Assembly: GCA_963706285.1 (NCBI GenBank) | Contig: CAVPLU010000016.1 | Span: forward strand, 48,111-112,110 | Source: Candidatus Bathyarchaeota archaeon | Lineage (GTDB): Archaea > Thermoproteota > Bathyarchaeia > 40CM-2-53-6 | DNA: 64,000 bases | Reading direction: 5' to 3' | In this document: positions 1 through 9,834 of the stretch, in pieces | Layout of the letters: every line of letters begins with the position of its first letter | Numbering within the stretch: the stretch's first letter is position 1 | Made by a program: the position numbers and the translations under genes | Notes under the pieces: generated by a model | The model's input: only the letters and a program-made list of their open reading frames with translations | The model's database searches: none | What the model was told of the DNA's origin: nothing

Positions 1-35
1 CGCGAGGATGAATTCCTTCAAGCGTCAGCGAGATC

Positions 36-323
36 TCACGTGACATCTGCCAGACGCGCATTGAAGCCAAGGCCGGCAGATCACAGTCACGCTTGAAGAA
101 TGATGCGGTGTGATATCACACGGGTCACAGTCATGTGATCCACAACTCCTACCTTAGCACGAACCTATCTCCTGAAGGCAATTACGCAGAAATTGAGCGT
201 AAATGGGAGGGCTAGATCACGCGACTCTCTCTCGAATGGGAACTCCTAGGAAAGACATGTTCGACCCGCGATCACGGCTGAGATCACGATCGTGACGTGT
301 GTGACGCGTCACAGCCAAATCAC
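36..323. repeat. Array of TCAC/GTGA half-sites including palindromes
   Basis: 10 TCAC plus 5 GTGA in about 290 bp. Palindromes TCACGTGA (36-43), GTGTGATATCACAC (108-121), TCACGATCGTGA (284-295) and TGTGACGCGTCACA (300-313). Confidence 0.7.
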
Positions 324-410
324 AAGGGTCAAAGACTGTGGAATTGACAAAGTCGCAGTATTCAAGACATAAAAGCCTAAGAGGGGAATTGTCAGGCGGC
401 ATGGATTACC

Positions 411-1115
411 TTGGATTATTTCTGGCTGTTCGCACCCATTTCGGCGGTTTTCGGAGCTCTACTGACTGGAGTTGTGCTTCGAAGGCTTGACATTTCTCGA
501 ATGAGCTACCGCGAAGCGAAGCAGATGCTGTCAGCGATCGTTGGTTCGCTGTCGAATCGGATCGAGCAGAATGAAGCACTCACGAAAGAATTGTCAGAGC
601 AGCTCGAGATCCTGTCGGCAAACCATGCACGCGTTAGTGTCGAAGGACAAACCGCTGACAAAGAACGACTTCTCATCTTCATGCAGGACTGGATGGGGAA
701 CCTGAAGCGGTTCATTGAGAAAGTGGATGGACTTCAGAAGAGCCTCAAGAGCGCTGAACATGAAATTCAGGAGATGCGAGTTCGCGTCGAACAGTTGAGC
801 GGTGCTCGCGCCCAAAGCTCAATCCCTTCAGAAGCACCAGTGGGTGTTGTGACAAAAGAGACGCTTACGAGGCTCTCGCCGACCGAGAAAACTGTGTTGG
901 AGCTTCTGATAGGTGGCCCAAAGGCAGCTCCTGAGATTGGGCGACTTGTAGGGAAATCACGTGAGCACACAGCCCGAATGATGAAGTCGCTCTTCGAACA
1001 GGGTTTCGTCGAGAGAGAAGCAAACCGTCAACCATACCAGTACCGTATCAACGACAAAGTTGGAGAGGTACTAGGACGCCCTTCTCAAGCAGAGGCTATT
1101 CAACGCGAAGGCTAG
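411..1115 (+). CDS. Membrane-anchored coiled-coil protein with C-terminal winged helix-turn-helix
   Basis: N-terminal hydrophobic helix (FWLFAPISAVFGALLTGVVL), heptad-like middle and C-terminal LSPTEKTVLELL..APEIGRLVGKSREHTARMMKSLFEQGFVER wHTH pattern. Confidence 0.8.
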   Translation: MDYFWLFAPISAVFGALLTGVVLRRLDISRMSYREAKQMLSAIVGSLSNRIEQNEALTKELSEQLEILSANHARVSVEGQTADKERLLIFMQDWMGNLKRFIEKVDGLQKSLKSAEHEIQEMRVRVEQLSGARAQSSIPSEAPVGVVTKETLTRLSPTEKTVLELLIGGPKAAPEIGRLVGKSREHTARMMKSLFEQGFVEREANRQPYQYRINDKVGEVLGRPSQAEAIQREG

Positions 1116-1507
1116 GCGTGCGCTGAGCGAGAGCAGTAGCGCCAACTACCGGGAGAACCGGAACGGTATAGGAGACCTCTGTCGACAAGCCTTGAAAGGT
1201 AGGTCGCAACCGTCGTCAGGGGAATTGGTTCGGCATACAATTGCTGGTACAATGTCCTGACTTCATGCGAAGAAAATGTGGCTTCCCGAAGCCTGTGAAC
1301 TACGAGATCTCGAACGCGCTCCAGTTTGGTACGCGCGTATTGGGATGGATCCTGGGTTGCTGATTGTGAGGAAACGCCGCCCATGAGCTCCGTGTAGTCG
1401 AGGATTCTCGCAATCTTCTCTCGAGTAAGAGGGCCCTCGAGAGAAACGGTATGCCGGCAGCCTGAATCGTCATAGAACTCAATTCTAAGACGTTTGACTG
1501 CCAACAC
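1112..1507 (-). CDS. Small protein with C-terminal winged-helix domain, divergent from oriC/cdc6
   Basis: FSSHEVRTLYQQLYAEPIPLTTVATYLSRLVDRGLLYR wHTH-like segment. Converges on 411-1115 with a 4-bp stop overlap. Confidence 0.75.
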   Translation of the reverse strand: MLAVKRLRIEFYDDSGCRHTVSLEGPLTREKIARILDYTELMGGVSSQSATQDPSQYARTKLERVRDLVVHRLREATFSSHEVRTLYQQLYAEPIPLTTVATYLSRLVDRGLLYRSGSPGSWRYCSRSAHA

Positions 1508-1585
1508 GCGACACTCTCACGAGTCTGTGTGAACGACGTGTAGATAAAGGGATTATGTGTGACATGACTGTTACTCCTTGGTCAG

Positions 1586-2071
1586 TTCCAATGGAAAAAT
1601 GAAGTATTCCAGCGGAAACGGAGGGGTGTGTCCTAGTTCACTTAATGTGAACCTATTTCTTGCCTGAAAACTTCCACAAAGCCCAGACCTGGTTGAGATA
1701 TGATTATGATTACACATGATGACAGTTGAATGTGAAGTGTCCCTAACCCCTGCCTTTCCAGTGGAGTTCGTTTTGACATTTCACGGTCTGAAAAAGAGTC
1801 TTAGTGTTACTACTACAATAATTAGCATAACCTTCCTTATCCTAAAACTCTCGCTAATATACACAGGATTTTTTTCTCAACACTACACTTCACTTCTTTA
1901 GGAATACGTTTCTCCAGGGGAAGTGCACGGGTGCCGGGGAGGTAATGCTCAACTCCATACAAATCAATATGATTCAGGTTTCACGATTTTTTTGTTGCAA
2001 CTAGTCTTACTTCTTCGACAATGATGATTATTATGAGTTCAAGTAGAAAGACGGGGATTACCAGTGGAGAT
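1586..2071. promoter_or_regulatory. Probable replication origin (oriC) with ORB elements
   Basis: ORB TTCCAGCGGAAACGGAGGGGT (1607-1627, +) and inverted ORB CTCCACTGGAAAGGCAGGGGT (1746-1766, -). Weaker boxes at 1586-1598, 1912-1932 and 2059-2071. AT-rich, gene-free and directly upstream of cdc6. Confidence 0.85.
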
Positions 2072-2076
2072 GCCTA

Positions 2077-3342
2077 ATGGAGAAGCCTAGTATGAAATCA
2101 GCAGACGTTCTTGAAGGCATCTTTGAGAACTTCCTCACTGGACCACAACTGTTCATTAATCGAGAAGTTCTGAGAAACGACTACATCCCCAGCACGCTAC
2201 CTCACCGTGCAGAACACATTCAGAGACTAGGCGGTATACTCGCGCCGGCCCTGAGTGGTTCCAAGATATCCAACCTTTTCGTGTATGGGAAGACTGGAAC
2301 CGGGAAAACCATAGTAGCAAAATTCGTGTTAGAGAGACTGAAGAAGAAGGCCGAGGATGTCGGCACACCTGTTCGAATCTCATACGTCAACTGTCGCATG
2401 GCAGGAAGCAACTATCGAGTGCTCGCTGATCTCTGTCGCTGCGTCGGAGTTGAGATTCCCTTCACAGGCCTGGCATTAGGTGAAGTTCTGGATAGATTCA
2501 GGACCGGCCTAAACGCCGACAAAACCCCTCTCATAGTTGTCTTAGATGAAATAGACGCCCTCGTCAAGGGTCGTCAAGACGACTCCCTGCTCTATGAATT
2601 GACCAGAATCAATGAAGAGCTTGGCCAAAGCTGGATTGGAATAGTCGGCGTCTCCAACGATCTCCACTTCAAAGAGTTCCTCGACCCTCGAGTGCTGAGT
2701 TCTCTAAGCGAAGAAGAGGTCGTCTTCAGGCCCTATCTCGCAAACGAACTCTACGACATTCTCCTCGACAGAGCCAAACTAGCGTTTGCTGATGGAATCC
2801 TATCGGAACCCCCCCTCCGACTCTGTGCAGGGCTCGCAGCCGGCGAACACGGCGACGCCAGAAGAGCACTCGACCTATTACGAGTGGCAGGAGAGCTTGC
2901 GGAACGCGAAGGCGCACGCACGATCCAGGAGGACCATGTCAAACGTGCGCAACACAAGATTGAACACGACAGAGTCGCCGAAGTGCTGAAGTCACTTCCT
3001 GTACATTCAAAGGTCGTGTTGGTCTGCGCGTATCTGGCCACTAATCAGGCGCCAGAAGGCGTGATCACAGGCGACATCTACGAGGTCTATCATGAGCTGT
3101 GCTCAGCGGCAGGGTTGGATCCACTTACGCAACGGCGTGTGAGCGGCCTAGTGAACGAGCTTGATGTAATGGGAATTCTCAACGCAAGGGTCGTAAGCTT
3201 CGGCCGGTACGGTAGAACTAAGAAGATAAGACTCGGCGTCTCACCTAGAGTCATCGTTGAAACCTACTCGGAAGACACCCTCGTCGGACGATTATTCAGC
3301 CACGTACCCAGATCTCTCCAGAAGCGCCCAGGAATCGCTTAG
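2077..3342 (+). CDS. cdc6: Orc1/Cdc6 replication initiator
   Basis: Walker A GKTGTGKT, Walker B VVLDEID, GDARRALDLLR sensor and C-terminal wHTH with GRYGRTKKI. Confidence 0.97.
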   Translation: MEKPSMKSADVLEGIFENFLTGPQLFINREVLRNDYIPSTLPHRAEHIQRLGGILAPALSGSKISNLFVYGKTGTGKTIVAKFVLERLKKKAEDVGTPVRISYVNCRMAGSNYRVLADLCRCVGVEIPFTGLALGEVLDRFRTGLNADKTPLIVVLDEIDALVKGRQDDSLLYELTRINEELGQSWIGIVGVSNDLHFKEFLDPRVLSSLSEEEVVFRPYLANELYDILLDRAKLAFADGILSEPPLRLCAGLAAGEHGDARRALDLLRVAGELAEREGARTIQEDHVKRAQHKIEHDRVAEVLKSLPVHSKVVLVCAYLATNQAPEGVITGDIYEVYHELCSAAGLDPLTQRRVSGLVNELDVMGILNARVVSFGRYGRTKKIRLGVSPRVIVETYSEDTLVGRLFSHVPRSLQKRPGIA

Positions 3343-3913
3343 AGCTGTCGGCATAGACGACGGCCCATCAAAACGCAGTGGAACAACGAAGTCATCTACG
3401 TCTCACGCCTCGTTGGTCGCAGTCTGGTTTGACCAACTAAGATTCGACCAAATACGCATCGGAGTTCTGGAAGTTGATGGACTGGATTCAACCAACGTAA
3501 TCCTCAAGCTACTCAGGGGAACACGAACAGACATAATCTTTCTTTCAGGAATCACCTTCGCAGGATTCAACATCGTCGATTCTACCCGACTTCACAATAC
3601 GCTTCACATTCCGATTATCGTTGTCTGCCGAGAGAAGCCTGATAATCGCTCCGTCAAACGTGCGCTTCAGAAGCATTTCACAGACTGGGAGAAACGATGG
3701 GAGCTGGTGCGCAAGTTTGGGAGGATATACTCATTCGCGCCGAAACCGTCAGAGCAGCCTCTACATTTTGAAGCTGTTGGCATCTCAGCAGCCCATGCGA
3801 AGAAGGTCATCAGTGCCTACTGTGCCACGTCGAGGATTCCCGAACCTATCCGGGTTGCCGGCATCGTCGCAAAAGGACTAGCTCTAACCGGCGCGGAGCT
3901 AAACGCTCGATAG
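3257..3913 (+). CDS. DUF99/UPF0215 family protein (endonuclease V-like fold); true start uncertain
   Basis: GIDDG, VDGLDST, LSGITFAGFNIVD and PEPIRVA motifs. Confidence 0.85.
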   Translation: MKPTRKTPSSDDYSATYPDLSRSAQESLRAVGIDDGPSKRSGTTKSSTSHASLVAVWFDQLRFDQIRIGVLEVDGLDSTNVILKLLRGTRTDIIFLSGITFAGFNIVDSTRLHNTLHIPIIVVCREKPDNRSVKRALQKHFTDWEKRWELVRKFGRIYSFAPKPSEQPLHFEAVGISAAHAKKVISAYCATSRIPEPIRVAGIVAKGLALTGAELNAR

Positions 3914-5571: not shown

Positions 5572-6546
5572 TTGGATCTCCGTCGACTCCAAAGAACGTC
5601 AGATGGAACATTCTTCGTAACTCTACCCAAACCCTGGGTCGTCAAGAACAGGCTTGAGAAAGGTGCCATTCTAAGTTTCTCGGAGCGGAAAGACGGGAAG
5701 CTGCTTACTGAGCCATATGGCGAGCAGGAACGGAAGATCAGCACGGTCACGTTGGCGCCGAGCCCGATGTTGCGGCGAGAGATCGAGGAGAATTATCTCC
5801 TCGGATACGACGTATTCGAAATAGTCTCACAGCAAGCCATTCACTCAGACACGAGAGAGACGGTGAGAAGGATCGTTCGTAGCTTGGTGGGTCTTGAGAT
5901 TGTGGAGGAGGATACGAAGAAGATAGTCATACAATGCCTCATCGAACCATCGCTGCTCTTTCCGGACAAGATCCTGCGAAGGCTCCACTTGATCACATTG
6001 TCGATGCAGAAGGACGCTGTTTCATCGTTTGTTAGCGGCGATTCAAAGTTCGCTCACACCGTGATCGAACGCGACGAAGATGTTGACAGACTATACTTCC
6101 TTCTCGTGCGAGTTGTCCGAGCGGCTTTGACTGATCCGGCGATCGCTGAGAAACTTGCCACGAGCGCCATAGAGTGCCTCGACCATAGGATTCTCGCGAG
6201 TCTCGTTGAGAACTTCGCGGACTATGCCACCGATATTGCAGAAAGTACGTGGGCACGGGGAAAAGGTAGAGATATGGAGAGTACGATTCGAAGCATCGAG
6301 AAGGCGGGCGGCATTCTCAACCGCATGCACAAAGACGCGGTTGAAGCCGTGTTTACCAGAAACCTTGCGCTCGCTGAAGAAGCAACAAGCCTCTACAGGG
6401 ACGCAGAAACAAGCATCAAGACCGCAGAGCGGGGATTAGTTAACGCAAAGCCGGAAACCATCGATCGGTTGGCAACTGTTGTGTCCGCGCTGAAAGCGAT
6501 GTCAGAAATAAATGTCGACATTGCCGATTTGGCAGTCACTCGGTAG
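5572..6546 (+). CDS. AbrB-PhoU phosphate uptake regulator
   Basis: N-terminal RRLQ..FVTLPKPWV AbrB-like domain and ERDEDVDRLYFL PhoU repeat. Confidence 0.9.
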   Translation: MDLRRLQRTSDGTFFVTLPKPWVVKNRLEKGAILSFSERKDGKLLTEPYGEQERKISTVTLAPSPMLRREIEENYLLGYDVFEIVSQQAIHSDTRETVRRIVRSLVGLEIVEEDTKKIVIQCLIEPSLLFPDKILRRLHLITLSMQKDAVSSFVSGDSKFAHTVIERDEDVDRLYFLLVRVVRAALTDPAIAEKLATSAIECLDHRILASLVENFADYATDIAESTWARGKGRDMESTIRSIEKAGGILNRMHKDAVEAVFTRNLALAEEATSLYRDAETSIKTAERGLVNAKPETIDRLATVVSALKAMSEINVDIADLAVTR

Positions 6547-9405: not shown

Positions 9406-9834
9406 CTATTTCTTTCGCTTCTTCTTAGGGGCGGGAGTTCTCTTTTTCGTTATGTGGTAGATGTCGAGCCAGATTCCGTCGATGACTTTGAAGAATGCGA
9501 CTTTCCATTCGCCATCTTCAATTGGTCCAATCATGGGAGGATATCCAGCATCTTTTAGTCGTTGCACGGCTCCGTCGAAATCATCAACCTCGAATCCTAA
9601 GTGATCCAGCTCGTCACCTTCTTTGAAGGGGCCTGCGACTGGGCTGTCATCTGCGTACCAGTTGATCTCTAGCCAATGCTTCTCGTCGAGTGACAAGAGG
9701 TTTGCGAACTCCCCTTTGTTCGAAGGAGCCTTGATACGACCTTGCACCTTCATTCCGAGGACATTCGTGAAGAATTGAATTGCGTTATCGAGATCTCGGA
9801 CACGTATCCCCGTGTAACCGAACTTGAATCTCAT
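9406..9834 (-). CDS. VOC/glyoxalase family protein
   Basis: YTGIRVRDLDNAIQFFTNVLGM and ELDHLGFEVDD. Start placed at MRFKF because the upstream extension runs through the repeat sites. Confidence 0.88.
   Translation of the reverse strand: MRFKFGYTGIRVRDLDNAIQFFTNVLGMKVQGRIKAPSNKGEFANLLSLDEKHWLEINWYADDSPVAGPFKEGDELDHLGFEVDDFDGAVQRLKDAGYPPMIGPIEDGEWKVAFFKVIDGIWLDIYHITKKRTPAPKKKRKK

Follow-up and report, generated by a model that had tools for sequence, protein, structure and literature searches.

The locus and its features

The window analysed here is the whole of a 64,000-nucleotide stretch of DNA from a Candidatus Bathyarchaeota archaeon (GenBank assembly GCA_963706285.1, contig CAVPLU010000016.1; G000:C16:48111-112110, G000 being the genome of the window). 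At its left end, beside a putative replication origin, a dense array of TCAC/GTGA half-sites lies directly upstream of a gene, here called B, for a predicted membrane-anchored winged helix-turn-helix (wHTH) protein. The gene order is PolD large subunit (-), Elf1 (-), A (+), array, B (+), C (-), origin, Cdc6 (+), Endo_dU (+) and PolD small subunit (-). The array, gene B and the end of gene A comprise the following features:

1..43, + strand: 3' end of gene A (161 amino acids; full gene G000:C16:47668-48153), whose stop codon, TGA at 41-43, falls within the first palindrome of the array
36..330, no strand: B-box array, 15 TCAC/GTGA half-sites, extended consensus GTGA-YR-TCAC-R
108..121: perfect palindrome of 14 bp, GTGTGATATCACAC, then GGGTCACA; the most strongly conserved of the array boxes, GTGTGAYRTCACAC-N2-3-GTCACA being present in 8/8 congeners
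284..323: promoter-proximal box cluster, with TCACGATCGTGA, GTGACGCGTCAC and a direct pair GTCAC-N6-ATCAC at 11-bp spacing
343..375, + strand: promoter-like block, ATTGACAAA-N5-AGTATTCAAGACATAAAAG, invariant in 8 congeners
411..1115, + strand: gene B, 234 amino acids; predicted transmembrane (TM) signal-anchor, coiled coil, flexible linker and C-terminal TrmB/MarR-like wHTH

The site array upstream of gene B

The array is non-coding and occupies the 367-bp spacer between the stop of A and the TTG start of B (411). Its 15 half-sites start at 36, 40, 81, 87, 110, 116, 125, 135, 217, 272, 284, 292, 301, 309 and 320, and four pairs of them form palindromes: TCACGTGA (36), GTGATATCAC (110), TCACGATCGTGA (284) and GTGACGCGTCAC (301). 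An earlier sequence-only reading of this DNA had counted 15 half-sites in about 290 bp against two or three expected by chance, four of them paired as palindromes, and this observation was confirmed. The genome density of 0.0083/bp gives 2.4 half-sites per 290 bp, and dinucleotide-preserving shuffles of 31-335 had a mean of 4.47 (standard deviation 1.9) and reached 15 in 0 of 5000 cases. When 300-bp segments were ranked by density in 50-bp steps over all 21 contigs of the 2.13-Mb genome, the array came first, with 13 half-sites versus 11 at the next-best loci. The remaining TCAC-dense segments of this genome lie inside open reading frames (ORFs) or consist of a different GTGAG repeat 5' of a ribosomal protein gene. 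At G000:C9 ~96900-97080 (L003 ~1900-2080), seven same-strand GTGAG/GTGAA repeats are found in ~200 bp upstream of an ORF read by eye as ribosomal protein L10e/uL16; their motif differs from that of the array.

Pooling of 227 sites from 18 loci gave GTGA-Y-R-TCAC-R as the extended box. GTGA-N2-TCAC is the most frequent arrangement, with 29 cases; direct repeats at 11-bp spacing come next (14 + 8 cases). The box GTGAYRTCAC occurs nine times in the whole 2.13 Mb, by our own estimate about the chance level, and forms no second cluster. A genome-wide regulon was rejected on these grounds. The hexamer GATCAC was likewise rejected as the motif, since it occurs 52 times over the window versus 48 expected and 0-2 times per spacer in relatives; the conserved unit is RTCACR. 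A search of positions 1-2200 for structured RNA gave no Rfam match at E <= 1.

At the genus level (8 congeners), the spacer has diverged apart from the TCAC blocks and the block at 343-375, which probably carries the transcription factor B recognition element (BRE) and TATA box of gene B. The array boxes stop about 20 bp upstream of this block. Within 284-323, GCGTCACAG and AATCAC are invariant or nearly so. In lineages g2 and g4, a palindrome abuts the start of B.

Gene B and its protein family

Residues 5-23 of B are hydrophobic by hydropathy prediction (Kyte-Doolittle 19-residue mean 2.03) and are followed by RRLDISR. Weak coiled-coil matches cover residues ~30-130. The wHTH at ~152-214 matches TrmB (PF01978) with 25.5 bits versus a gathering cut-off of 25.6, and also IclR, MarR_2 and other models. 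Its recognition helix is KSREHTARMMK, in which S183, R184, E185, H186 and R189 are invariant in the alignment; SREH..R is kept in 23/23 aligned sequences. The invariance of this helix parallels that of the TCAC core from Bathyarchaeia to amoA-type archaea (family f34, described below). No Pfam match to an effector or sugar-binding domain was found C-terminal of the wHTH, and the protein ends ~20 residues beyond it.

A TM segment is predicted in 61 of 75 B homologues, including those of all 30 class-level loci, and basic residues follow it. Between this segment and the wHTH, Bathyarchaeia have a long coiled coil and amoA-type genomes a short one with a low-complexity linker; f42 and f47 have hardly anything there. 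Three elements are conserved in the B family: anchor, spacer and wHTH. The B of f42 and f47 (L128, L129, L133, L134) is short, 130-147 amino acids, with a TM helix and wHTH without coiled coil, and its start overlaps or abuts the end of A. There is no array in f47 (at most four half-sites per 200 bp); the boxes of f42 lie within the coding region of A.

Homologous-protein searches returned 152 matches, annotated no further than "hypothetical" or "MarR family", the named ones coming from Candidatus Bathyarchaeia. The protein Atlas yielded only unnamed clusters, of Bathyarchaeota and Nitrososphaerota. Sequence-profile searches of PDB with A, B and C gave nothing significant except generic coiled coils and wHTH; the AspA chains matched the B profile insignificantly (E 0.34-0.48). 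By prediction, B has both parts of the definition of a transmembrane transcription regulator, namely a DNA-binding domain and at least one TM region.

Conservation of the module

As a single query, B gave matches in 29 of 41 relatives, and the best 80 related loci in the contig search were all Bathyarchaeia-type. A, B and C occur in the same order in all 20 first-round loci (in one short contig C lies beyond the contig end), with an A homologue in 20/20. Profile searches found one copy of B in 103 of the 151 Bathyarchaeia sampled and, at the level of the phylum, in 138 of 251 genomes; one copy of C was found in 92 of the 151 Bathyarchaeia. The order PolD-Elf1-A-B-C-origin-Cdc6-(Endo_dU)-PolD is also present in distant families of the class and in family f34. 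The f34 genomes are 99% complete, and both of the two tested carry archaeal amoA.

Conservation of the array in relatives, on which the sequence-only reading depended, holds for 20/20 first-round loci, where the A-B spacer of 193-367 bp contains 7-15 half-sites, and well beyond them; it does not extend to loci without B (0/18). The equivalent region of the amoA-type genomes has up to 12-14 GTGA(T) sites, some of them within the 3' end of A. A conserved ATCAC-GATAAA-TCAC pair lies just upstream of B in these genomes and is analogous to the direct pair at 284-323 of the window. In three complete amoA-type genomes, paired GTGAT sites cluster, within 260 bp, only at the module locus (G332, 5 of 44 genome-wide matches; G178, 3 of 33; G220, 2 of 30).

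Synteny with cdc6, the other conserved property at issue, was retained in most Bathyarchaeia loci and in 7/7 amoA-type loci whose retrieved stretch reached cdc6, where A, B and C stand beside it. B lies within 3.2 kb of cdc6 in 10/10 wide loci at the order level, the module of g2 being on the opposite side of cdc6-Endo_dU, and cdc6 is within 4 kb in 20 of the 30 class-level loci with B. The linkage is lost in f22 and f28 (9/9). In f40 and f53 the B-C pair is 116-194 kb from the orthologous cdc6, and in f42 ~15 kb.

Identity of the box-binding protein

The presence of boxes was scored against the presence of B with one locus per genome:

Loci encoding B (n = 75): at least one GTGAYRTCAC in 60; 8 or more half-sites within a 200-bp stretch of the module in 58
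Loci without B (n = 18): at least one GTGAYRTCAC in 0; 8 or more half-sites within a 200-bp stretch of the module in 0

The loci without B belong to families f2, f7, f8 and f10 (n = 10) and f18, f21 and f23 (n = 8), in which a genome-wide profile search did not find B. All of them keep C, and 10/18 keep A. Arrays are present where C was not found, that is, in f5, in three f14 loci and in f22 (C profile in 1 of 27 genomes). They are also present where A was not found: of the four f40 loci (A profile in 0 of 4 genomes), three have 11-12 half-sites per 200 bp upstream of B. The phyletic coupling to B and the persistence of arrays without A or C indicate that B is the likely binder of the boxes. 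Thus, on this comparative pattern, B is most likely the protein that recognises GTGA-YR-TCAC, and it would act at its own locus.

Gene A and the boxes around it

Gene A belongs to an orphan family. No Pfam or NCBIfam match was obtained for it, and no Pfam family was found among 19 members. The structure model (predicted local distance difference test score, pLDDT, 69.5) is all-helical, with six helices; it gave no Foldseek match at E <= 0.001, and VIA-align returned only generic helical hairpins (Z <= 7.1).

A box lies at or within a few bases of the A stop in most loci with A and B (for example, L078 3365, L080 3144 and L083 3066; 36-43 in the window). Further boxes are found 200-600 bp upstream of A, and the Elf1-A spacer of G000 contains three half-sites (L001 ~9420-9442).

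In several lineages, a 775-amino-acid gene, convergent with A, is inserted between A and B (L086 4933-7257, -; L083 3072-5399, -). From its sequence features it is read here as a HypF-like carbamoyltransferase. In four f22 genomes, GTGAYRTCAC is present inside this gene at an equal offset, 582 bp from the palindrome at the A stop. In several distant lineages, a gene read by eye as helix-turn-helix plus CBS-domain takes the place of A directly upstream of B (L083 5473-6045, +; L130, L131 and L136-L139).

Gene C, its boxes and the origin

The part of the module that faces cdc6 has these features:

1112..1507, - strand: gene C, 131 amino acids; N-terminal beta-hairpin and helix (6-42), canonical wHTH (61-126)
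1529, 1636 and 1647: GTKAAC "C-boxes", the last two forming GTTCAC-N5-GTGAAC, which is invariant in 6/6 congeners
1508..2076: origin region, with ORB-like repeats (ORB, origin recognition box) at 1586-1598, 1607-1619, 1755-1766, 1911-1923 and 2058-2070; AT-rich at ~1700-2000
2077..3342, + strand: Orc1/Cdc6 initiator, with Cdc6_C (2e-27), Cdc6 lid (1.7e-25) and AAA domains

The five repeats TTCCA-N3-GGA, which are kept in 6/6 aligned congeners, resemble the ORB consensus. G+C content dips to 0.365-0.38 at 1701-2000. The ORB-bearing origin of the sequence-only reading was thus recovered, with cdc6 at 2077-3342, the AT-rich stretch and the repeats, and the assignment of this region as a cdc6-adjacent archaeal oriC is sound on sequence grounds. 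The two genes that it had placed next to the origin were recovered as well, B with TM, coiled coil and wHTH by prediction, and C as a convergent small wHTH gene. The extra GTGA/TCAC sites that it had placed at 1517-1562 are present at 1517, 1529 and 1559; at least part of them belong to the GTKAAC motif.

C is convergent with B and overlaps its end, its own start being turned towards the origin. Of the 36 class-level loci that have C, 32 have it within 1.2 kb of cdc6. Its structure model (pLDDT 80) matches wHTH proteins of the ArsR/BlaI/MecI/Fur/RosR type in Foldseek at E ~4e-3 to 5e-2, none at or below 0.001. The match to Penicillinase_R (PF03965) is 19.6 bits, below the cut-off of 22.6 (E 0.0012), and an amoA-type C orthologue scored 21.2 against CopY_TcrY versus a cut-off of 121.95 (E 2.6e-4).

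The origin spacer of G000 contains three C-boxes versus 0.48 expected. In seven amoA-type loci (L121-L127), GTTMAC is found 4-6 times per C-cdc6 spacer of 390-615 bp versus 0.03-0.25 expected from the rest of each locus. The motif GTKAAC/GTTMAC sits over the C 5' end and between the ORBs, in the form GTTCAC/GTGAAC in G000 and GTTAAC in amoA-type genomes. In lineages without B, GTGAA repeats are retained upstream of C. This distribution suggests an origin-associated role for C, which would have GTKAAC boxes of its own both in the origin and over its promoter.

Two more Orc1/Cdc6 paralogues are encoded in G000 (C4:408922-410076 and C9:146393-147469), with 27-29% identity to that of the window. 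A, B and C are found at neither of them, since each of the three is single-copy. The longest Endo_dU ORF (3257-3913) overlaps the cdc6 end by 86 nt, its true start probably being later. At 5572-6546 lies a gene with an AbrB/MazE-like N-terminus and two PhoU domains. In Nitrosopumilus maritimus, one origin has been mapped according to the accessible part of a review (PMC4010727).

Proposed function of gene B

The favoured reading, to which a rough probability of one half is given, is that B, as a membrane-anchored dimeric wHTH regulator, sits on the array of its own locus and controls B and probably A and C. B would span the membrane once, with an N-terminal anchor and a cytoplasmic DNA-binding domain, which the basic residues after the TM helix would fit. 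It would dimerise via the coiled coil and bind the GTGA-YR-TCAC boxes as well as looser TCAC half-sites. The array at 36-330, directly upstream of the B promoter and the sole such cluster in the genome, would be the landing pad of B. From there, B would control its own gene and probably also A and C, because boxes also flank A and lie near the C start. With B inserted in the membrane, an occupied array would hold the locus at the membrane, 1.2-1.9 kb away from the ORB elements.

In the genus of the window the boxes lie upstream of the promoter-like block, a position linked to activation in archaea, and the palindrome abutting the B start in g2 and g4 has a position linked to repression. According to the accessible text of PMC4158304, TrmBL1/Tgr of the TrmB family bind TATCAC-N5-GTGATA, activating from upstream of BRE/TATA and repressing from downstream. 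The best Pfam match of B is to TrmB, and the TATCAC half-site has the same ATCAC core. Unlike TrmBL1/Tgr, B has no sugar-binding effector domain, its boxes are mainly GTGA-N2-TCAC, which is the opposite orientation, and it has one target locus, not a regulon. Dimers of CopY-family wHTH proteins bind the 4-N2-4 box TACANNTGTA (PMC7253601, accessible part), the geometry of which is shared by GTGAYRTCAC. Both the half-site and the geometry of the array boxes thus have a precedent.

The class of transmembrane transcription regulators includes ToxR/CadC in bacteria and ArnR/ArnR1 in Sulfolobus. As in this class, a DNA-binding domain and a TM segment are combined in one polypeptide in B. Unlike in ToxR, CadC and ArnR, the TM segment of B is at the extreme N-terminus, there is no extracytoplasmic or sensor domain, and the wHTH is C-terminal, behind a coiled coil; moreover, ~15 half-sites are arrayed in front of the B gene, beside oriC. 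About four such regulators are present per archaeal genome, mostly single-pass, as stated in the accessible part of PMC10269533.

Several observations weigh against this reading. The 7-8 dimer sites far exceed the usual need of autoregulation, and half-site centres 6 bp apart are tight for many wHTH dimers. The wHTH of C is more BlaI/CopY-like than that of B, so that C could bind the 4-N2-4 boxes. The phyletic pattern represents perhaps two or three independent losses of B, related genomes not being independent samples, and upstream of C the loci without B still show a TCAC/GTGA enrichment, weaker at 3-7 per 200 bp. In f22, the hypF-like gene lies between A and B, palindromes flank A, and only 0-5 half-sites are found in the 250 bp upstream of B. 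Since the f22 boxes stay around A, the array is not simply the operator of B, and A may be served by the boxes no less than B is.

Alternative explanations

The sequence-only reading had proposed a centromere-like array through which one of the two wHTH proteins could anchor oriC to the membrane. In the form considered here, the array would anchor the oriC region via B for the positioning or segregation of sister origins, effects on transcription being secondary. The sequence-only reading had also named autoregulation as an outcome that would refute this idea, and a single array per genome at B's own gene also fits autoregulation. The proposal is partly supported; a dedicated tethering or segregation role of the module is unlikely. 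In its favour, a single polypeptide is predicted to combine a TM anchor with DNA binding, and 61/75 homologues keep the TM helix. The array is far larger than a usual operator, its direct repeats are phased at 11 bp (14 + 8 cases), and the module is set among the PolD-Elf1-cdc6-PolD genes in both Bathyarchaeia and amoA-type genomes.

Known systems provide partial models for such a tether. RocS and RacA are origin-to-membrane or origin-to-pole tethers of Firmicutes, the RacA sites being spread across the origin domain. Plasmid centromeres typically consist of iterated sites upstream of the binder's own gene (parC/ParR, tubC/TubR). In TubR-tubC and in AspA of pNOB8, a wHTH protein has a short-repeat array upstream of its own gene, which serves as both operator and assembly platform. 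Like these and other partition cassettes, B has iterated sites directly upstream of its own gene. Unlike in TubR-tubC/AspA, ParABS and SegAB, no motor or adaptor gene (TubZ, ParA/ParB) adjoins it, and B is membrane-anchored and chromosomal. Like RocS, RicO and RacA, B is by prediction an origin-proximal DNA binder with a membrane or pole element and no NTPase of its own. Those proteins have an N-terminal DNA-binding domain and a C-terminal amphipathic helix or DivIVA contact, unlike the N-terminal integral TM helix of B, the order of which is the reverse of RocS and RicO; and the sites here form one compact array, unlike those of RacA. The names RocS, RicO and RacA did not appear among the Pfam, NCBIfam and PDB matches of B, no comparison with their sequences having been made. 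RicO, which links origin-proximal sites to the membrane according to the accessible part of a preprint (bioRxiv 10.64898/2026.03.06.710092), gives the tether a bacterial precedent.

Several points speak against the tether. No partition NTPase gene of the ParA/SegA/ParM/TubZ type was found among the genes neighbouring B here or in the relatives' loci. There is one cluster of sites and not a set of sites across the origin domain. The TM helix is missing from 14 of the 75 B homologues (g2, g5, f9, f40 and f53), and most of those lineages keep dense arrays; the linkage with cdc6 is lost in f22 and f28 and stretched to 116-194 kb in f40 and f53; and several families without B still keep C, the origin and cdc6. 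In 9/9 loci of f22 and f28 (L084-L091, L098), C and the window-type cdc6 are missing together, and A-B with boxes remain beside PolD. Five f22 genomes carry, elsewhere, only a divergent Cdc6 paralogue (27-33% identity), which neither A, B, C nor an array adjoins.

A broader form of this idea would be an ancient motor-less device for origin-membrane attachment in Bathyarchaeia and ammonia oxidisers. C would mark oriC via GTKAAC, and anchored B on a centromere-like array 1-2 kb off, perhaps with A, would keep the origin region at the membrane after its replication, for positioning or licensing. Such a device is distinctly unlikely; if true, it would be the archaeal form of the origin-membrane attachment of the replicon model.

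According to another explanation, the boxes are bound by C, A or an unlinked factor, and B is a regulated target whose own DNA sites lie elsewhere. The BlaI/MecI/CopY-like character of the C wHTH (Penicillinase_R E 0.0012, amoA-type CopY_TcrY 2.6e-4, Foldseek) would agree with this, as such a family uses 4-N2-4 boxes. So would the boxes on both sides of A, including the A stop in most class-level loci, and the f22 boxes that remain with A after B was displaced. C resembles BlaI, MecI and CopY as a small wHTH protein with weak family and fold matches to them. It differs from them in that its matches are below cut-off, an N-terminal beta-hairpin domain takes the place of the C-terminal dimerisation or sensor domain, and the neighbouring motif, GTKAAC, is a distinct candidate of its own. 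Arrays or palindromes occur in lineages in which C (f5, f14 loci, f22) or A (f40) was not found, and arrays are absent from 18/18 loci with C but without B, 10 of them keeping A. A binder other than B is considered unlikely.

The least probable explanation is a replication-control module, in which B and C tune origin firing or cdc6 expression (by membrane sequestration after initiation, or by cell-cycle transcription of cdc6/polD) with the array as a loading site: the gene order kept among core replication genes over very long distances, the position of C divergent from cdc6 across the origin (at most 1.2 kb in 32/36 class-level loci with C), the C-boxes between the ORBs, the joint absence of C and the window-type cdc6 from the f22/f28 loci and the existence of UBP, an accessory origin-binding protein of Sulfolobales (PMC12141716, accessible part), speak for it, but the B-boxes lie outside the ORB region, A-B-array modules persist apart from cdc6, and an interaction of B or C with the origin is putative only.

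Significance

In the openly accessible literature, supplements excepted, no description was found of the B family, of its box or of a link between an archaeal origin and the membrane. Taken conservatively, as a membrane-bound regulator under autoregulation, the system is ordinary in itself. Its setting is unusual, since the gene module at oriC is conserved across the phylum and brings together two cis-elements and three proteins, DNA-binding or orphan, that are all uncharacterised.

Beyond Sulfolobales and haloarchaea, the organisation, positioning and regulation of origins are largely unknown in archaea. The module described here is single-copy and widespread, and it stands amid core replication genes. 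Its orthologues are present in complete amoA-bearing genomes, a group with cultured members, which makes it directly testable. Even when taken conservatively, the locus would add three things to an archaeal oriC: GTGA-YR-TCAC as a new cis-element, together with the protein that likely binds it; GTKAAC as a second origin motif, for which a candidate binder can be named; and the orphan family A.

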